From: Pirellulales bacterium
Lineage (GTDB): Bacteria > Planctomycetota > Planctomycetia > Pirellulales > JACPPG01
Assembly (NCBI GenBank): GCA_036499395.1
Contig: DASYDW010000116.1
Location: forward strand, 157,832-221,831
DNA: 64,000 nucleotides
Direction: 5' to 3'
Under the pieces are notes generated by a model. That model worked only from the letters and a program-made list of their open reading frames with translations. It ran no database searches and was not told the DNA's origin. The translations under genes were made by a program, and so were the position numbers. Each line of letters starts with the position of its first letter. Position 1 is the stretch's first letter. This document shows positions 1,159-36,127 of this stretch, in pieces.

Positions 1159-1869
1159 ATGAAGTCGACCAAAATGCCTGGTGTGATTGCCTTTTCCTGT
1201 CTCGTGCTGGGATTGGCAATTTCGGCCCCGGCGACCACGATCTCATTCTCAACCGGCGATAACTCGACGGTGGATGGTGGTAAACCGGTGGATGCCCAGG
1301 TGACGTTCGTGACCACTACGAACGAAATTCTTGTCACGTTGGAAAATCTGCAAACGAAGATTAGTGATATCGCGCAAGTGATTAGTGGTGTGTCGTTCGA
1401 ATTGAGCAACAACAAGACCAGCACCACGCTCGGATCGAGTTCCGGTGTGGAACGAACGGTGAATTCAAACCGTACTTTCAGTGACGGTCTGACGGTTCCC
1501 ACCGGCTGGCAAGTTCTGCTCGATGGCACCAGCATGCAGCTGATGCTGCCCGATGGAATGGACACGCACTCCATTATCGGGCCGGCTTCTGGCACCAAGT
1601 ACTCGAATGCGAATTCGTCGATCGCGGGCAGTTCGGATGCCAATCCGTTCCTGGCCGGGCCGGTGACGTTCGTGATTCCCGTAAATGGCGTCACGTCGAC
1701 GACGACGGTCGATTGGGCCACTTTTCACTTTGGTATCTGTGCGACGTACGTGCAAGCATGCAATACGTTTGTGCCCGAACCGGGTAGCATGACGCTGGTC
1801 GGTCTGGCGATTGCGTGTGGGGCTGTTGCGGGCCGCCGTAAATTGCGTTCGCTACGCCGTAAGGCGTAG
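1159..1869 (+). CDS. PEP-CTERM sorting-domain exported protein
   Basis: Signal peptide MKSTKMPGVIAFSCLVLGLAISAPA. GGAG lies shortly upstream of the ATG. C-terminal PEP-CTERM signal FVPEPGSMTLVGLAIACGAVAGRRKLR. The body is Thr/Ser/Asn-rich with no recognised enzyme motif. Confidence 0.85.
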   Translation: MKSTKMPGVIAFSCLVLGLAISAPATTISFSTGDNSTVDGGKPVDAQVTFVTTTNEILVTLENLQTKISDIAQVISGVSFELSNNKTSTTLGSSSGVERTVNSNRTFSDGLTVPTGWQVLLDGTSMQLMLPDGMDTHSIIGPASGTKYSNANSSIAGSSDANPFLAGPVTFVIPVNGVTSTTTVDWATFHFGICATYVQACNTFVPEPGSMTLVGLAIACGAVAGRRKLRSLRRKA

Positions 1870-7950: not shown

Positions 7951-9477
7951 TCACCGATCTCGAATCGGCAGGAACTGCGGGTCAAGATGTACGTATCCGC
8001 CTTGACCTGCTTCGACTTTGCAGTTCGGTAACGCGGCACGTAATGCGCTTATTTGACTGCCGGTCACATGCACGCACCTGTGGACGCCTAATTCCTGAAG
8101 ATTCGACATTTTCTTCAGATGCTCCAAGCCATGATCTGTGAGCTTCTCGCACCAATAAAACCCCAACGATATTAGTTTCGGCAATTGGACCAAACTCGCC
8201 ACGTCATCATCGCTGAATCCTTGGACGCCATTGATCACCAGATGTTCAACGCTTTGGGGTATTACGACCTGATAATGTGGCGCATCGGCAGAGCGTGTTT
8301 GATAATCGAGGTCTAGCCGCTTCAATTTGCGGAGCGATGACAGGCCGTGCCCCTGCACACGGTCGTTCATACGAATACAGAGTTGATGCAGTTGCAGGCA
8401 TTCTCCGAGGCTCGCAAGCCCTGCGTCGTCGACGTTCGCACCCAAAGTGATATCAAGAGACTCAAGGTTCTTAATCGCTCGTAGCTGTTCCCATCCTTTG
8501 TTGGTTTCCGTGCTCTTGCCAAATAGCAGCGTCAGATCTTCTAGCTTTGTCAGGGTCGCGATTTCGGCGAGTACATCATCATTCAGTCCGTCGCGAAATC
8601 GGATGGTCAGCCAGTCTAGATTCTTAAGCTCGCCAAGCCGCGCGTTCGCGAGGTTGCTGCGCAGAGCGCGGCCGTTGATTTCTAACTGATGGAGTCCGTG
8701 CAAATTGCCAACCCACGGCCAGCCGCGCACGCCGGCGGGCAAATCGACAACGAAAACTTGGAGAATGGGCCCAGCCGGCCCCGGCGAGATCGTCACTCTG
8801 TGATCTACGTCTTCGTCAATATCCAAGTCAAGATATTCGAGGTTGCGGAGGGCGCCTAAATGGGAAAGTCCATCGTCGGAAATTTGAAATCCGCAGTTCA
8901 AATGTAGACGACGAAGATTGCTGAGCTTTTCGAGTTCGGCAATTCCCGCGTCAGTCACGTTCGCTCCGCAGTCAATAGTGAGGAACTCTAGTTTTTCCAG
9001 GGAACCAACAATGGCCATCACGCCGTTGTCACCGACTAGACGAGATTCGAGCCAAAGCTCATTCAGTTGCTTTAAGGACGCTAATTCCTGGAATCCGGAT
9101 TGCGTGCAACCGGAGTCGGATGAGATCATCAGTTCCTCAAGCTGCGGAAATTCAGGAAGGAGGCGCAACATATCATCCGTTGCGTGCCACAATTCAACGC
9201 TTTTAACGTTACAGAGATGATCGACATCGACAAATCTCTGCAACCACAATGGGACAGGAAGTGTGTCGAACTCGGGCTCGAAGTCTTTGTACTCTATCGA
9301 ATTGAAAGTGTGTCCCGCGCGAAGCGCTACCACCGAGCGCTTCTGCCGCAGGGCGCTCGCGTGCCAGCGCACGAGCAGGCCGAGACTGACGCCGAGCGTC
9401 AAAAAGACGACGAGCAATCCGCGCAGCCCGAACTGCAACCAGCGGCGGCGCGTGGGCCGTGTTTGTGAGTTGGTCAT
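7951..9477 (-). CDS. leucine-rich repeat (RNI/F-box-LRR-like) protein with N-terminal membrane anchor
   Basis: N-terminal RRRWLQFGLRGLLVVFLTLGVSLGLL anchor, then many ~25-aa repeats of the L..L..L.L....ItD.GL..L type. ATG 9477 was chosen over 9576. The gene is AT-richer than its surroundings (hand count 25/60 G+C at 8101-8160). Confidence 0.8.
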   Translation of the reverse strand: MTNSQTRPTRRRWLQFGLRGLLVVFLTLGVSLGLLVRWHASALRQKRSVVALRAGHTFNSIEYKDFEPEFDTLPVPLWLQRFVDVDHLCNVKSVELWHATDDMLRLLPEFPQLEELMISSDSGCTQSGFQELASLKQLNELWLESRLVGDNGVMAIVGSLEKLEFLTIDCGANVTDAGIAELEKLSNLRRLHLNCGFQISDDGLSHLGALRNLEYLDLDIDEDVDHRVTISPGPAGPILQVFVVDLPAGVRGWPWVGNLHGLHQLEINGRALRSNLANARLGELKNLDWLTIRFRDGLNDDVLAEIATLTKLEDLTLLFGKSTETNKGWEQLRAIKNLESLDITLGANVDDAGLASLGECLQLHQLCIRMNDRVQGHGLSSLRKLKRLDLDYQTRSADAPHYQVVIPQSVEHLVINGVQGFSDDDVASLVQLPKLISLGFYWCEKLTDHGLEHLKKMSNLQELGVHRCVHVTGSQISALRAALPNCKVEAGQGGYVHLDPQFLPIRDR

Positions 9478-9614
9478 CACTGTCGATTCTAATCCGTCGC
9501 GCCGTGCTTTACGTCGCGTGGTAAAATGACTCGACCGGTGGCAGTGGCTGCGGGCGTCGTAATCAGCGGCCGTCACCGCCGGTCGTAATCCGGGCCGATA
9601 CGGAGATTATCGCG

Positions 9615-16727: not shown

Positions 16728-17678
16728 ATGTCTGACGAAATTACCAAAATCCTAATTGCCGCCACCGGCGGTATTGCTTCGAAGGACATAATCACGAAGC
16801 TTCTCGGACCGAGCGCGGACTATATTGGCGAAGGCGCGCGGAGTCTTGTTGAGAAGTCGAGCCGGAACCTGCGCCGAATATTCGATGTCGCGTGCGGAAA
16901 GCTCGGAAATAAGATCGACTCTCAAGGTGGTGTAAACGCACGTGTCTTAAAAGGTGTCTGGGAAGAAGGACGTTACATCGAAGATGCGATCTCCGCAGAA
17001 TACTTCGGCGGATTGCTTGCTGGGGCTCGAACGACAGATGGTGCCGATGATTCGGCCGTCCCAGCACTCTCGCTGTTGAAAGCCATGTCCTCCCAACAGC
17101 TGCGACTACATTTCATCATCTACTCGTTACTCGCGCGCTATCCTTTTGCCACAAAGCGGCTCGACGCACATGAGTTCTGGAAGGGCCTTCACGTGGCCGT
17201 TTCAGTCGACGAGCTACTCTTGGCCGCACAATTTGACGGCGGGGACGGCGCGGCCATTCTCTTGTTGGCAACGAAAGGACTAATCGATCACGGGTTGCTG
17301 GGATGGCGGTACGCGTTCGAATATGGGGGCCTAAAGGAGTCGTCGGGAATTACCCCGGCATTTGATTTCATAACACTGACGCCAAATAAGGCTGGAGCCA
17401 GCCTTTTTCTTCGAGCCCTTGGTCAACGTGGTCTACATCCTGAGTTAATCACCGCAATTAACGTCGACCATAGTCTATCGGACGACATCAAGTCATCCGT
17501 TCAGTTACCGCCAAATGCGACTTGCTACCACTCACCTGTCGAGGATTCGATAAGACCTCTGCACGACGACGTGGAAGACCGGTTACTTGAGGTTGAGTCA
17601 GACGTGGAGGAGTTGAAGGACGAACTTCGGCGAAGTAAGACGGACGCTGAAAGCAAACGTAAAAAGAAGCCGGTTTAA
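16728..17678 (+). CDS. Abi-alpha (DUF4393)-like protein, candidate abortive-infection gene
   Basis: The N-terminal ~130 aa follow the Abi-alpha family pattern as I recall it: KLLGPSADYIGEGARSLVEK..RNLRRIFDVA...ARVLKGVWEEGRYIEDAISAEYFGGLLAGART..DDS..ALSLLKAMSSQQLRLHFIIYS. The C-terminus is an acidic coiled-coil with a KRKKK tail. Hand-counted G+C is 29/60 and 30/60 inside, versus 46/60 in purE. Confidence 0.55.
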   Translation: MSDEITKILIAATGGIASKDIITKLLGPSADYIGEGARSLVEKSSRNLRRIFDVACGKLGNKIDSQGGVNARVLKGVWEEGRYIEDAISAEYFGGLLAGARTTDGADDSAVPALSLLKAMSSQQLRLHFIIYSLLARYPFATKRLDAHEFWKGLHVAVSVDELLLAAQFDGGDGAAILLLATKGLIDHGLLGWRYAFEYGGLKESSGITPAFDFITLTPNKAGASLFLRALGQRGLHPELITAINVDHSLSDDIKSSVQLPPNATCYHSPVEDSIRPLHDDVEDRLLEVESDVEELKDELRRSKTDAESKRKKKPV

Positions 17679-30209: not shown

Positions 30210-32591
30210 TCAGTTGCCGACCGGCGTCGGCGTGGTGCTTACCAGGGCCCGAACCAACGACTCGCTCCCCGTGGCAGGTGGCAGCACAGCATTCGCGTAC
30301 GCGGCAATCTCGATATTGTAATCGGTGAGCCGGGCCAGAAACGTGCCCGTCTCGGCGGTTTGATCGCTGATGGCTTGCAGAGCCTGGCGCGTCTCGGCCA
30401 TGGAGAAGGTGGGATCCAGAGCCATGTTGCCCCGCGCGTCGTCGGCAGCGACGACCGCCGCGGCTCGATCGACCAGGGCAGCCCGCAATTGCGGAATCGT
30501 GGCGGCCAGGCGCTGGATCGTGGGAGATGTGGCCAGCTCACGCGGCAATTCGTTCAATTGCAGTCGGTATCCGCCAGCGTGCGGAGGTGTTTCCGCGATC
30601 AGCCAAGGACTGCCGGTCAGCGGGCGCCCCGCGGCCTGCGTCAGGCTCCACTGTGCCGTCAGTCGCTCGATCTGTGCATTGCGCGCGTCGGCCTGGGCGG
30701 CCAGTTGTGCGGCGCGCACCAACAACATGGCTTCGGCGCCGCCAGGACCTTGCAGCCCTTGACTGGCGATCGTCCCCCCGAGCGCTTCGAATTGCTCGAG
30801 CTGCTGCGCGAGCAATTGAGCGCGAGCCGCGTGAAACTGCGCCTGCCAATACGACGTGATCGCGTCACGTCGCCGCTCAGCGGGAACATTCACCAGGTAA
30901 TCAGCAAGCGGGATCGGCGCGCTTTCGGCCGTTACCGCGACAGGCTCCCAACACAAGACCAGCGCCAACTGCCGCGCCTGATCGGCGCTCGACCGATCGC
31001 GCAGCGCCGGGTAAAGGCATGGCGAAGCGTGTAGCTCAGCGGTCGTGATCGCTGCCGCCGGCGGTTCGGCCGCTGGAATATCAGCACTCGGCATCGTTGG
31101 CACACCGCGTTCCGCAACGGGCAGCGCAGAGGACTCGGCCAAAGGCGCCTCCGGCAGCATGTCGGCCGGCGCCGTCTGATTCTCGGGAATGCCGGTGGGA
31201 CGCTGTGCAGCGTACTTGCCGTAAGGAGGTTCTGCCTTTTCCGTCGATGTCGAACCGTAGGGGGCCTTTTCTTCGTCGCCACGTGGCAACGGGGGCAAGC
31301 GCTGCTCGCGCGGTGTTTGCTGCGGGGGACGCGGCGGAGCCAGCGTCGGCTCGTTGCGCACAGGCGCCGCGGGATTCACCGGCGGCGGAGCAAGATTCAG
31401 TTGCCCCTCGGGCACTGGCTGCAAAGGCATCTGTTGCGGCGCGGCAATCGGCTGATTGAAGCCGGCCCGTTCGATGCCGGTCGCTCCCGCCGGATTCGTC
31501 ATCGTACCGCCGGCAACCGTGCCAGTCGGAACACCCGCGGGAAGCTTGATCAACATCGAGGCCAGCCCTTGTGGGTCCAAGGGGGGCGTCGGAGCGGACA
31601 TCGCGTATTCGGCGATTTCGAGATTGTAAGTGCGGACATCGGCCATAAAAGCACGGCGCTGACGCGACAGCTCATCGACCAGCGATAAAACGAGAGCCAA
31701 GTCGCTGCGCCCCTCAAAATGCGATTCCTCGGCGGCCATTAAGGCATCGCCGGCGGCGTTGACCGCGGCGGCACGCGATTCGATCGCGCTACGGCGGATC
31801 GGCAGTGTTCGATCAATCAACACGGCCCGCGGCGGAATCGCGCGGCCTTGATATAGATTGTCCAACTCCGTGCGATACGGTCCTACGTGCGGAATGTCCG
31901 ACGGCAACGGCAGCGTTTGCCCCGTCGGCAAACGAATCGAGCCGGCCAGGTCATATTGTCCAGAGACCAGCGCAACGTCGGCATCTTGCAGTCTCGCCTT
32001 AGCGGCCTGCAGCCGAGGCGCCAGCATGCGCTGGTCGGTGCTCGGCTCATTGTCAGGGTGTTGGGCCGGCTTCAATCGCTCGAACTGTTGATACTCATCC
32101 CAAGCAAAGTTGTAGTCGGCCAGCGCCTCGGCCAGACGCCAATAGCTTTCCGTCGCGCGCAATTGCCCGGCGCGATCCGGGACCAAACGCAGGACCTCGA
32201 CCAGCGGCATCGGGCGGCCGCGCGGTTGTTCCCCCTCGGGCACGGCCAAGGCCTGACTGAGAATCTCGGCCGACGCGGTGCGTGCCGAACGCGGTTCGAC
32301 GGGCACCAGCTTGCCAGGCGCCGCGGACGGCGGCGGCGCAGCAGCAGGAGCTTCCTTGCGCGCCGGCGGAATTTCGGCCGGGACGGGCGGAGGCGGTGGA
32401 TCAGTTTCGGCAGGAGGAATGACGCCCGCCTGCGGCGCGGCCGGGGCCTCGCCGGCCGGCGCCGTGGTACTTTGCCCACGCTCGCGCTGGCCATGCACGC
32501 CCTGTTGCCCCGCGCGCGGTGCGGCCGGCGGCTGGGCGGCCGGCGGCAATTGCGCGAGCAAGCTACAGATTAAAAAGTGAGTCGTGTACAT
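30210..32591 (-). CDS. exported proline-rich protein with internal two-fold duplication (possible distant TolC/OEP-like)
   Basis: ATG 32591 gives MYTTHFLICSLLAQ. There is a ~110-aa P/A-rich linker. Two homologous halves share ordered motifs (SYW..., LE/QFE.L, TYNLEIAEYA / DYNIEIAAYA). The family assignment is speculative. Confidence 0.6.
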   Translation of the reverse strand: MYTTHFLICSLLAQLPPAAQPPAAPRAGQQGVHGQRERGQSTTAPAGEAPAAPQAGVIPPAETDPPPPPVPAEIPPARKEAPAAAPPPSAAPGKLVPVEPRSARTASAEILSQALAVPEGEQPRGRPMPLVEVLRLVPDRAGQLRATESYWRLAEALADYNFAWDEYQQFERLKPAQHPDNEPSTDQRMLAPRLQAAKARLQDADVALVSGQYDLAGSIRLPTGQTLPLPSDIPHVGPYRTELDNLYQGRAIPPRAVLIDRTLPIRRSAIESRAAAVNAAGDALMAAEESHFEGRSDLALVLSLVDELSRQRRAFMADVRTYNLEIAEYAMSAPTPPLDPQGLASMLIKLPAGVPTGTVAGGTMTNPAGATGIERAGFNQPIAAPQQMPLQPVPEGQLNLAPPPVNPAAPVRNEPTLAPPRPPQQTPREQRLPPLPRGDEEKAPYGSTSTEKAEPPYGKYAAQRPTGIPENQTAPADMLPEAPLAESSALPVAERGVPTMPSADIPAAEPPAAAITTAELHASPCLYPALRDRSSADQARQLALVLCWEPVAVTAESAPIPLADYLVNVPAERRRDAITSYWQAQFHAARAQLLAQQLEQFEALGGTIASQGLQGPGGAEAMLLVRAAQLAAQADARNAQIERLTAQWSLTQAAGRPLTGSPWLIAETPPHAGGYRLQLNELPRELATSPTIQRLAATIPQLRAALVDRAAAVVAADDARGNMALDPTFSMAETRQALQAISDQTAETGTFLARLTDYNIEIAAYANAVLPPATGSESLVRALVSTTPTPVGN

Positions 32592-32987
32592 CTCGGCATC
32601 CTTCCGGACGTTGACAGCCCGATAGCAAATCCCGAAACAACGGACCGTCACCTACTTGTGATAGGACGCGAAGTTTCGGCTGGCGCGCGGAATTGCGCAG
32701 CGCAGCCCCCCGCGCCTCGCAAAACTGTGGTTCAGCGTGACCGGTTCCTGCCAAAGCGTCAACAGGGACGATTCGGGCAGGCCTCTTTTCCACCAACGAG
32801 TGACGGTCTAACCCGTGGCCAATGCGGTGCAAGTGCCGGTTAACTTTGCCTAATCCACCGGAACGATTGTTCGTGCCATCATGTTACCGCGTGGTTGACG
32901 CCCGCGCGCCGGGCTTGTGAGAATGTGCAGGCATCCCGGCCACGTCAGGCAGTTGCAGCACAAGGCGCTTCAGCATTCCGTCCGCCT

Positions 32988-33545: not shown

Positions 33546-33607
33546 ACGAGCAAATTGTCATCGATCCGCTAACACTAATCCATAAACACATTCAGAAATT
33601 GCCTGGC

Positions 33608-34426
33608 ATGACGAATTGGTCCGGAAAAGTGGTGATCGTCACCGGTGGCTCAAGCGGACTGGGGCGCGCCATCGCTGCTGCGTTCGCCGAGCGTGGGGCC
33701 AATGTCGTGATCGCGGCGCGCGGCGCCGATGCATTGCAGCGCACCGCCGCGGAACTCAGCCAAGCGGGCCGTGCGGTGACTGCGATTCCGACCGACGTGA
33801 CGCGGCAGGTATCGGTCGATGCGCTGATCGCGCAAACGATCGCCAGATTTGGCCGCATCGATGTGCTGGTGAACAACGCCGGACGATCGAGCCGGCGGGC
33901 TGTGCTCGACACCACGCCCGAGGATTTCGCCGCGCTCGTGGAAATCAATCTGCTGGGTCTGGTGCGCATGACGCGGGCCGCGGCGCCCCATCTGCTAACA
34001 GCCCACGGACACGTGGTGAATATCGGCTCGCTGGCTGGCAAGTCCGCGACCCGATTCATGGGGGCCTACCCGGCCAGCAAGTTCGCCGTCTCGGCCTATT
34101 CGCAGCAGTTGCGATTGGAGCTCGAGCCGCAGGGCTTGCATGTGTTATTGGTCTGCCCGGGCCCGATCGCGCGGGACGAACCGCGTGCGGCTGACAGTGA
34201 GCGCGCCCAAGAAGACACGAGCGGCATTCCCGAAAGCGCCCGCAAGCCAGGCGCGGGGGCGAAAGTAAAACTCCTTCAGCCAGAAGACCTGGCCGCACGC
34301 ATCGTCCAAGCCTGCGACGCGCGACAACCAGAACTGGTCATCCCAGGCAAGGCGCGAATCCTCTTCGCCATCGCCGCCCTCTCACCGCGCTGGGGCGATT
34401 GGCTGGTGCGACGGATGACGAGTTAG
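33608..34426 (+). CDS. SDR family oxidoreductase
   Basis: VVIVTGGSSGLGRAIA (TGxxxGxG), NNAG and YPASKFA (YxxxK). The ATG at 33608 is in frame with the longer shadow ORF from 33185. Confidence 0.88.
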   Translation: MTNWSGKVVIVTGGSSGLGRAIAAAFAERGANVVIAARGADALQRTAAELSQAGRAVTAIPTDVTRQVSVDALIAQTIARFGRIDVLVNNAGRSSRRAVLDTTPEDFAALVEINLLGLVRMTRAAAPHLLTAHGHVVNIGSLAGKSATRFMGAYPASKFAVSAYSQQLRLELEPQGLHVLLVCPGPIARDEPRAADSERAQEDTSGIPESARKPGAGAKVKLLQPEDLAARIVQACDARQPELVIPGKARILFAIAALSPRWGDWLVRRMTS

Positions 34427-34559
34427 ATGCAGCAGTTCTAGACGTTGAATTTGAGGACTGTTCTTTTGAGACTTCGGGAGCGTGTTTAGACTACGACGCA
34501 GGTTCGGTCCGACTCCAAACATAGTACCTCTCACGACTGAGGTCTTTCCGGTTCCGGCT

Positions 34560-35606
34560 CTACTCGGGATCTGGATTGGTAGTTATCCAATTGTCGACTT
34601 CGGTCATCATCGTAGTTGCACTCGTAATGGACGCTCCGGTGAGATCCGCAGCGATTGCGCCGGATAACTCAATTTCTGCACCGACCTGCATTTCGCCCCA
34701 AGAGTCAAAGCCTTTCATCCGCTCTTTGAATGCGTCGTCAACAAAACCACTCCGGTGAACGAGCGCATTTCGGACGGCGTGCAGTATATCCAAGCCGCGG
34801 TTGTCAATCGCGCCCATTACGGCATCGCCTCTGAAAATCGATCGATACGCGGATCTAATGTCGTCGAGAGTCTTAAACGACACCTTTCTACTTTCGACTA
34901 GCACGTTCCCCATAGTACGCCGAAGATCGAAATGATGCTTCATAAGGAGGCGGAACGGCAACCATTTAGAAGCCTCTTCCTTGCCGCTTGGTGCCATTCG
35001 TTTCACGAGTTCACGCGGGCACTCATTGACGGCTACAATCCAGAGATCTCCAACCAGCGTCTCAAATGCTGTCCAACTGCCGATGATTTGAGCCGCAAGA
35101 AGCGCGTGCAATGCGTCTGAAATTGCCGAGGTGCTGAACTGTGAAATCATCGCCGAAATTTGCGGATGCATACTCTCGAATCCGACAGTCGCCTTATCAA
35201 CTGACTCTTGAATAGGAAGAAAATCGAGCAGTTCCCTGAACGTACCGACGTTTTCGAGCCGTTCCTGTAGCGCTGACTGCAGAATGGCATTAGTCTCTGG
35301 AGTATTTGGATTGGTCGATACTGCTTCGATGAGCCCCGGAACTTTTGAAAGCGACTTAATGAGTTGAAAAAACGCGATACCAGCAATTCCTGATGCCAAG
35401 CTGACGCGTCCGGGAAATTTAGCCATCGTACGAAGGCGATTGACGTTTCGCTCAAATGCCTCAGCAACTGGACGCAGTGACACGTTCCGCAACCCGCCGG
35501 CTAACCCTACATAGTCGGTTGCGAACGAGGCGGCTTTCTCGAATTGGCGGTCGGAACTTCTACTTTCGACGTTGCCCGCTTCAATCGTTTCGGCTTCTAT
35601 GGTCAT
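34560..35606 (-). CDS. HEPN-motif protein (candidate Abi-type RNase), otherwise unknown
   Basis: 348 aa, all-helical in character. R279-N-A-L-V-H284 (nt 34755-34772) matches the HEPN Rx4-6H signature. GAGAGAGGG lies upstream of the ATG. G+C is ~48-50% in hand-counted lines versus 75% in the adjacent SDR gene. Confidence 0.55.
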   Translation of the reverse strand: MTIEAETIEAGNVESRSSDRQFEKAASFATDYVGLAGGLRNVSLRPVAEAFERNVNRLRTMAKFPGRVSLASGIAGIAFFQLIKSLSKVPGLIEAVSTNPNTPETNAILQSALQERLENVGTFRELLDFLPIQESVDKATVGFESMHPQISAMISQFSTSAISDALHALLAAQIIGSWTAFETLVGDLWIVAVNECPRELVKRMAPSGKEEASKWLPFRLLMKHHFDLRRTMGNVLVESRKVSFKTLDDIRSAYRSIFRGDAVMGAIDNRGLDILHAVRNALVHRSGFVDDAFKERMKGFDSWGEMQVGAEIELSGAIAADLTGASITSATTMMTEVDNWITTNPDPE

Positions 35607-35839
35607 AGTGGCCCTCTCTCACCATGTAGATCATCGCCTAGCCCGAGCAGTTGACTGCCGGGTCGCCAATTCTTCCGAAATGACAAAGGTTCCGGAAAGT
35701 GCGGTCAAGGCGAAGTGAAGACCGCCCCTTCACGTGAGTTCGCCGCGCGAGCTCTTGGCGATGGCGCCAGTAAGGCATTCCACCGCGCAGGGCGGTGTCT
35801 CAAGTTTCCGTGCGACAGACTGTTTGACGGCCGTCGAGA

Positions 35840-36127
35840 TTACTCAATCGGCGTCGAAACATGCCCTTGGCGATCGACCTTCGGTAGCACCTTGGGCTGG
35901 TAGATTTCGGTGTAGGCCTTGGCCTTGCGGTGCAGGTCCAATGCTTCGGTTGATTCCCAGCGCTCGACGAGCAGGAATTTCGTTTCGTCGACGGTCGAGT
36001 GATACACCTCGAAGCGGGCGCAGCCGGGCTCGGCGCGGGATAGCCGCCCCTGCTCGCGCAACAGCTCGCGAATCTCGGGGACGTCTTTGGCGTCTTTGAC
36101 GGTAATCCAGATGTTGGCATAGATCAT
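35840..36127 (-). CDS. antibiotic-biosynthesis-monooxygenase (ABM, YgiN-like) domain protein
   Basis: 95 aa. The pattern IWITVKD....F....L...SRAEPGC..FEVY......F.LVERWES.EALD.H matches the ABM/quinol monooxygenase family. Confidence 0.8.
   Translation of the reverse strand: MIYANIWITVKDAKDVPEIRELLREQGRLSRAEPGCARFEVYHSTVDETKFLLVERWESTEALDLHRKAKAYTEIYQPKVLPKVDRQGHVSTPIE

Follow-up and report, generated by a model that had tools for sequence, protein, structure and literature searches.

Introduction

HEPN domains are four-helix up-down bundles composed of two hairpins, with a conserved Rx4-6H motif in which the arginine is followed by a polar residue (N, D or H) and with a conserved acidic residue in helix 2, spatially near the motif (PMC3710099). 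One of their families, Ribo L-PSP-HEPN (PF18735), was described as a distant relative of AbiD/AbiF (PMC3710099). In ApeA and HepS, a single HEPN protein constitutes the defence system; both form autoinhibited oligomers and cut tRNA anticodon loops, ApeA as doughnut-shaped oligomers activated by deoxydinucleotides, and the prophage-borne HepS as a tetramer activated by a phage tail-tip protein (bioRxiv 10.64898/2026.01.26.701840; PMC13043305). Here, we describe a gene for a 348-residue protein that lies in a 64-kb stretch of a Pirellulales metagenome-assembled genome (MAG) (contig DASYDW010000116.1, positions 157,832 to 221,831, forward strand; hereafter the window, numbered from its first nucleotide). 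A first-pass annotation had proposed, from the motif RNALVH, that the gene codes for a horizontally acquired HEPN effector without partner. We estimate the probability at roughly 55% that the gene was acquired horizontally as a single-gene accessory element and that its product belongs to a large family of the HEPN superfamily (metal-independent RNases) that is absent from Pfam, NCBIfam and PADLOC.

In order to place this family, of which the 150 best representatives were aligned (all counts of members below refer to this alignment), we compared it to the described HEPN systems. Like Ribo L-PSP-HEPN, it is bacterial and has a conserved Rx4H motif with a polar residue after the arginine, and the model of that family is its most recurrent weak Pfam match (4 of 150 members, best E = 0.017); a member from Caulifigura coniformis, annotated as hypothetical at NCBI, even bears the name 'RiboL-PSP-HEPN domain-containing protein' in UniProt (A0A517SCV6). 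However, our family stays below the Pfam threshold and has a conserved N-terminal module of its own, and neither the published endoRNase L-PSP fusion nor the ParB operon of Ribo L-PSP-HEPN is seen in it. The lactococcal AbiD and AbiF (Abi_2) resemble it in having a few hundred residues with an HEPN RNase domain, predicted in our case, and in having once been counted as single-gene abortive infection (Abi) systems; one family member weakly matches the PADLOC model of AbiD, but there is no significant sequence match between AbiD/AbiF and our family. With ApeA and HepS, the family shares the organisation as one gene without antitoxin on mobile DNA, and their combination of an HEPN domain with extra regions for oligomerisation and trigger sensing is the working model that we propose here, although PDB sequence searches revealed no similarity and Foldseek no match to either protein. 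Finally, the HEPN domain associated with the reverse transcriptases (RT) of AbiA and defence-associated RT (DRT) systems, RTasHEPN, is the best-scoring model both for the window protein (E = 0.017) and for 8 of the 150 members (best E = 1.3e-5). In contrast to these systems, no RT domain or neighbouring RT gene is present in any locus of our family, and while AbiA's HEPN domain is reported to be inactive and to serve in dimerisation (PMC13064643), the predicted catalytic residues of our family are invariant.

Results

Size of the family and conservation of its residues

A word-indexed homologue search with the window protein yielded one relative only, with 44% identity, and an exhaustive search yielded 1,945 cluster representatives at E ≤ 1e-3, or 1,093 at E ≤ 1e-10. 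Most matches cover residues ~160-346 and many are nearly full-length. The sources are so far mostly Planctomycetota MAGs, in addition to single MAGs of Alphaproteobacteria and Chthoniobacterales (Verrucomicrobiota). In composition-matched shuffles, the pattern R....H arises by chance in 34% and RN...H in 1.6% of cases, so that the motif in a single sequence proves little; RNALVH gains its weight because it is invariant among homologues. R279 is found in 150 and H284 in 149 of the 150 sequences, and the position after the arginine is N280 in 130 and histidine in 16 of them, in agreement with the polar residue of the HEPN definition. Conservation of R279 and H284 among homologues was one of the checks that the first-pass annotation had named for its proposal, and it is strongly supported by these counts; the placement of the motif at residues 279-284 and of the upstream segment SWTAFETLVGDLW, which begins at residue 177, was also correct. 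Downstream of the motif, G287 (141/150) and D290 (148/150) are conserved, and upstream the block WTAFETLxGDLW stands out with W178 in 136, E182 and D187 in 146 each, and W189 in all 150 members.

Regarding the N-terminal ~170 residues, the first-pass annotation had recognised no motif and had suggested a possible sensor. In the alignment, this half of the protein has a column occupancy of about 90% and a motif of its own, AF..N..R...L...P (F51 in 108, N54 in 119, R57 in 112 and P65 in 124 members), and residues ~20-130 match no family in Pfam, PADLOC or NCBIfam. The N-terminal half is thus not variable, and the notion of a sensor without a motif should be replaced by that of a conserved module. 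A membrane anchor at residues 68-86 was considered and rejected as a feature of the family: the window protein has a hydropathy of 1.55 in this segment, and a value of 1.6 is attained by no more than 19 of 143 members. An apparent frameshift divides the family gene of three MAG loci into a pair of overlapping open reading frames (ORFs) (L006 7476-8665, L007 7491-8733 and L009 7536-8659); these copies may be pseudogenes or assembly errors.

Predicted fold

Using the 150-sequence alignment as input, AlphaFold returned a model with a predicted local distance difference test score (pLDDT) of 89.7 and a predicted template modelling score (pTM) of 0.86; an input of two sequences gave a pLDDT of 34 and was unusable. 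The pLDDT is 93-98 over residues 161-348 and 21-60. The model consists of helices at residues 42-86, 103-119, 133-157, 160-195, 270-284 and 316-343, with short ones within 197-267. The predicted HEPN-like domain would be built from a hairpin of helices 133-157 and 160-195, an insert of ~70 residues (197-267), helix 270-284, a loop (285-315) and helix 316-343. The Rx4H motif forms the C-terminal end of helix 270-284, which ends at H284. E182 and D187 lie upstream of the motif in helix 160-195, where they form the pattern ExxxxD and not the typical Ex3[KR]. As modelled, the position of the motif, the polar residue that follows the arginine and the insert separating the hairpins match the HEPN rules of PMC3710099, and the acidic residue fits them by its placement in the putative helix 2.

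Evidence for and against the HEPN assignment

The most recurrent weak match among the 150 members is an HEPN model in each of the three libraries. In PADLOC, the RTasHEPN matches, of which that of the window protein spans the motif (residues 231-287) and is the only match it has, are accompanied by matches to CARF_HEPN models; in Pfam at E ≤ 10, HEPN_RiboL-PSP is followed by HepT-like in 2 members; and in NCBIfam, HepT_toxin is matched by 2 members (best E = 0.015) and Csm6 by 1. We read this pattern as real but marginal homology to the HEPN superfamily, outside any catalogued family.

Several results weigh against the assignment. No match in Pfam, NCBIfam or PADLOC reaches a curated threshold, that of the window protein to RTasHEPN included. 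At E ≤ 0.01, Pfam gives no HEPN model and no recurrent family for the window protein and the 150 members, but three matches to unrelated families in single members; the window protein itself has no match in NCBIfam and, even at E ≤ 10, none to PF18735, whose gathering threshold is not reached, and the member named after this domain in UniProt (P0038) has no match to it in the Pfam copy searched. A Foldseek search of the model against the PDB retrieved no HEPN structure (best E = 0.63, template modelling score about 0.13), which counts against the assignment since the PDB holds many HEPN structures, and sequence searches of the PDB with the protein, the full profile and a C-terminal profile gave noise only, such as GFP, myoglobin and RIB57. 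Confidence in the model is lowest where the proposed first HEPN helix (133-157) is located, with a pLDDT of 69-81 over residues 131-160. Furthermore, HEPN domains can be catalytically inactive, as in AbiA (PMC13064643).

These negative results, together with the frequency of R....H by chance, would also be expected if the product were an all-helical protein outside the HEPN superfamily that uses R-N-x3-H and the acidic residues for binding of a ligand or nucleic acid or for another type of catalysis, its likeness to HEPN being convergent or superficial. We consider such a protein unlikely, as the recurrent weak matches in three independent libraries are all to HEPN models, with E-values down to 1.3e-5, and as the HEPN rules are matched by a motif that closes a helix, by the polar residue next to its arginine and by the insert that separates the hairpins, and are in keeping with an acidic residue further upstream. 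The HEPN assignment made in the first-pass annotation is thus probable: it is upheld by motif, acidic residues, helix topology and recurrent weak matches, but not by a match above threshold or by a related structure in the PDB.

In a Foldseek search against BFVD, the best match was A0A8S5NVI2 (Siphoviridae sp. ctiPM17, 311 residues; E = 6e-3, probability 1.00, 215 columns, 18% identity). This phage protein, which is perhaps related to the family, is uncharacterised, and the match is not informative.

Composition and origin of the gene in the window

The HEPN-like gene has a G+C content (GC) of 51.3%, compared to a mean of 61.3% in the window, and is the lowest 1,047-nucleotide (nt) stretch of the 64 kb (z = -3.5), a dip beyond what chance would give. 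The GC at its third codon positions (GC3) is 0.53, compared to 0.72-0.78 in six neighbouring genes. The hand counts with which the first-pass annotation had supported an AT-rich island (29/60 and 30/60 G+C in the gene, 45/60 in the SDR gene) were exact on recount, and its 348-residue ORF, the gaps of 133 and 233 base pairs (bp) and the SDR and ABM neighbours were likewise borne out by the ORF list and Pfam (Table 1). GC drops abruptly at the stop codon of the SDR gene (34426/34427) and is back up by about 35700; the anomalous segment therefore spans about 1.27 kb and comprises the gene and its 3' gap. Synteny with relatives stops at the same stop codon: loci with an SDR orthologue (60-66% identity) retain the DUF6174-SDR pair, and after the SDR gene they have neither the HEPN-like gene nor the ABM gene. 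The absence from these loci fits an accessory gene. DUF6174-SDR is all that these loci share with the window, so that their divergence is too large for an empty site to be recognised.

No tRNA gene was found in the window, no direct or inverted repeat longer than 8 nt flanks the HEPN-like gene, and no integrase is present among the called genes within 10 kb of it. The upstream gap yielded no sigma-70-like promoter, and the downstream gap contains a weak terminator-like hairpin at 34526-34543 (-). Overall, a horizontal origin of the gene, as proposed in the first-pass annotation, is strongly supported by its GC and GC3, the low GC of its homologues in 8 of 8 loci, the transposases at six loci (see below) and the break in synteny at the SDR gene.

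Search for a partner or antitoxin

AbiF and AbiV, long regarded as single-gene Abi systems, are type III toxin-antitoxin (TA) systems, with an RNA that counteracts the HEPN toxin; the RNA of AbiF is encoded upstream and acts by blocking the active site (PMC13064643). Therefore, both gaps of the window gene were tested for RNA features. In type III systems generally, the antitoxin RNA is often present in tandem repeats. Neither gap contains tandem repeats or an Rfam match at E ≤ 1. Folding of the upstream gap is not exceptional (z = -1.55; 13 of 200 shuffles fold equally well), and the downstream gap does not fold more stably than its shuffles (z = +1.78). Across 15 family loci, no conserved sequence lies upstream of the gene. 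In contrast to AbiF, no upstream RNA feature is thus detectable at the window gene, and a type III antitoxin RNA with structure or repeats was rejected for this locus, on the basis of missing repeats, missing Rfam match, ordinary folding and missing shared upstream sequence. In 2 of the 15 loci, the 600 nt upstream of the family gene contain tandem arrays of at least 40 nt, with unrelated units. At L015 5652-6066, four units of ~110 nt with TGTCATCCTGAGCGAGGGCGAATGCCCGAGTCGAAGGACC lie directly upstream, the last of which enters the annotated start; at L016 5503-5610, two 54-nt units lie directly upstream of the gene. The units were found nowhere else among the loci examined and could be antitoxin-like RNA arrays or generic repeats.

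With regard to protein partners, the island in the window contains no second gene, and among the called genes, neither the surroundings of the window gene nor six further annotated loci contain an MNT/NTase (nucleotidyltransferase) gene. The missing MNT antitoxin, integrase and direct repeats, and more generally the missing partner, of the first-pass annotation are thus in line with the called genes, the repeat search and the RNA features of the gaps. When the neighbouring ORFs of 12 loci were compared all against all, no neighbour was shared by more than 3 loci. The commonest was a DnaJ/Anti-TRAP-type zinc-finger ORF of 60-68 residues (Pfam PF15777, E 3e-12 to 1e-9), with two CxxCxGxG knuckles followed by PTxxGEKxL..RHNFRPM. 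It is intact in three loci and degenerate in three others (Table 1), varies in its orientation relative to the family gene and is absent near the window gene according to a six-frame scan. The zinc-finger ORF is thus an accessory of a subfamily and not an obligate partner; the encoded protein could be a regulator or antitoxin of this subfamily. DUF1501, which lies beside the family gene in two loci, was rejected as a conserved partner. DUF1501 is an abundant planctomycetal family, and its position is probably a coincidence.

The precedent of AbiF and AbiV, the zinc-finger ORF directly beside the family gene and the repeats just upstream of it in two loci would be accounted for if the protein were the toxin of a TA pair with an unrecognised antitoxin, either a type III non-coding RNA or a small protein, in an addiction or defence module. 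Such a pair appears improbable to us, given the gaps of the window gene without repeats, Rfam match or unusual folding, the occurrence of the zinc-finger ORF in a minority of loci and in both orientations, and the few, unrelated arrays.

Mobility across homologue loci

Eight genome loci with a homologue were found by a scan with a C-terminal alignment of 13 sequences; they belong to Pirellulales, Planctomycetaceae, Fimbriiglobus and single MAGs of Alphaproteobacteria and Chthoniobacterales. In all eight, the GC of the homologue is 5-16 points below that of its flanks, and the same holds for L001, the contig of the closest homologue, and for the viral contig L042. Six loci have transposases at a distance of up to about 1 kb from the family gene: those of the insertion sequence (IS) IS1595 (DDE_Tnp_IS1595 plus zinc ribbon) at L003 8878-9867, L008 9613-10650 and 1433-2439 of the P0114 contig, IS1-like ones in L013 and L014, and DDE_Tnp_1 and rve in L016. 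As IS1595 is found in three unrelated loci, the gene is possibly an IS1595 cargo or the region a preferred insertion site. In L015, the gene is a lone insertion between metabolic genes, as in the window, and one MAG carries two copies (L006 and L007). The IMG/VR contig L042 has a full-length member at its low-GC end, adjoining a 391-residue ORF without PDB sequence match, and further along a VapE-type primase-helicase (PDB 7pds, E = 2e-42), which has matches in more than 1,000 phage records. A further ORF in this part of L042 appears PD-(D/E)XK-like by eye, and the region resembles the cargo of a phage or satellite.

Some observations argue against a mobile defence gene. The neighbours of the HEPN-like gene in the window are housekeeping genes, which do not form a defence island and lend a defence role no support by association; a tblastn search of plasmid and phage-genome collections returned no match, and PHROGs no recurrent match for the family. 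Among about 16 loci, one is a phage-like element and six have transposases, and no known defence gene recurs beside the family gene. Together with the metabolic neighbours in the window and L015, this would be compatible with an HEPN-type RNase that has a role other than defence, such as RNA processing or turnover, for which Las1 and the KEN domain of Ire1/RNase L are examples within the superfamily (PMC3710099), or with a passenger or selfish gene that is spread by IS and brings no benefit against phages. Both seem rather implausible. A housekeeping role is at odds with the patchy distribution, the atypical composition in every genome examined and the presence of two copies within a single MAG. 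One member is found at the cargo end of a phage-like element, where defence genes typically reside, and the mobile stand-alone HEPN proteins characterised to date act in defence.

Features of the window

The coordinates of the HEPN-like gene, its parts and neighbours, and of features in other loci of the family are listed in Table 1. A second low-GC single gene of the window (16728-17678 (+), 52.8% GC, GC3 0.56) may be another foreign insertion; its 316-residue product has no Pfam match and a charged tail, coiled-coil in appearance by eye. Low GC was also found for the gene of a 541-residue leucine-rich-repeat protein (7951-9576 (-), 53.9%) and for that of a 236-residue PEP-CTERM protein (1159-1869 (+), 55.6%). 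Upstream of the DUF6174-SDR pair, an ORF of 813 residues (30210-32651 (-); a gene of 793 residues in the public record) codes for a proline- and alanine-rich product without Pfam match.

Table 1 Coordinates of the HEPN-like gene, its neighbours in the window and features of other family loci.
Feature	Location	Strand	Basis and remarks
Coding sequence, 348-residue protein	34560..35606	-	ORF list, ATG start; identical to NCBI HEY4311925.1 'hypothetical protein VGN12_20930', Pirellulales MAG
Predicted HEPN-like domain, residues 133-343	34578..35210	-	AlphaFold model; part that most homologues share; topology according to PMC3710099
R279-N-A-L-V-H284, Rx4H motif with polar residue after R	34755..34772	-	150-sequence alignment and model
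W178-T-A-F-E182-T-L-V-G-D187-L-W189, conserved block with two acidic residues; candidate HEPN helix 2	35040..35075	-	Alignment; in helix 160-195
N-terminal helical module, residues ~20-130	35217..35549	-	Alignment and model; motif F51, N54, R57, P65 at 35412-35456
SDR gene	33602-34426	+	Pfam adh_short E = 1e-53; convergent with HEPN-like gene
ABM monooxygenase gene	35840-36127	-	Pfam E = 1e-14; same strand, upstream of HEPN-like gene
Downstream non-coding gap, 133 bp	34427..34559		50% GC; belongs to island by composition
Upstream non-coding gap, 233 bp	35607..35839		59.7% GC, climbing back to host level
Zinc-finger ORF, intact	L013 8809-9015	+	Six-frame scan; adjoins family gene
Zinc-finger ORF, intact	L006 8658-8840	+	Six-frame scan; adjoins family gene
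Zinc-finger ORF, intact	L003 8498-8686	-	Six-frame scan; adjoins family gene
Zinc-finger ORF, degenerate	L001 ~1261-1395	-	Six-frame scan, all loci
Zinc-finger ORF, degenerate	L007 ~8629-8700		Six-frame scan, all loci
Zinc-finger ORF, degenerate	L004 ~8617-8667		Six-frame scan, all loci
Family member	L042 290-1216		Viral contig
391-residue ORF	L042 1356-2531		Viral contig
VapE-type primase-helicase region	L042 2871-5060		Viral contig

Discussion

If the gene is indeed a single-gene accessory element with an HEPN-type product, its mode of action could be as follows. The C-terminal ~210 residues would fold as an HEPN four-helix core with a large insert, and an RNA-cleaving site would be built from R279, N280 and H284, with which the third core helix ends, and from E182 and D187 in the second, probably requiring dimerisation as in other HEPN enzymes. 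By analogy with ApeA and HepS, the conserved N-terminal helical module may keep the enzyme in an inactive oligomer by acting in assembly and gating, until a trigger frees it, the most plausible candidates being phage products or by-products of an infection; cleavage of tRNA or mRNA would then halt growth. What we state on RNase activity, autoinhibition, trigger and defence role is only inferred for the family, and an anti-phage or abortive-infection role is a reasonable hypothesis only. In its most far-reaching form, which we put forward tentatively and with considerable doubt, the proposal would be that of a new single-protein abortive-infection system, widespread among Planctomycetota and other soil bacteria, in which the hitherto undescribed N-terminal module senses infection and gates a divergent HEPN RNase, and in which the zinc-finger protein of the subfamily is a new type of HEPN regulator or antitoxin.

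Mobile stand-alone HEPN RNases are already a well-known kind of system, so that the finding is useful rather than surprising to the specialist; what is new here is an uncatalogued branch of this kind. The N-terminal module and the occasional zinc-finger neighbour provide handles on how stand-alone HEPN toxins are silenced and triggered. If our reading is true, about 1,900 clusters of 'hypothetical proteins', mostly from poorly studied Planctomycetota of soil and peat, would become assignable to the HEPN superfamily, and the Planctomycetota, a phylum in which almost no defence systems have been tested, would have a candidate immune or toxin module made up of a single gene.

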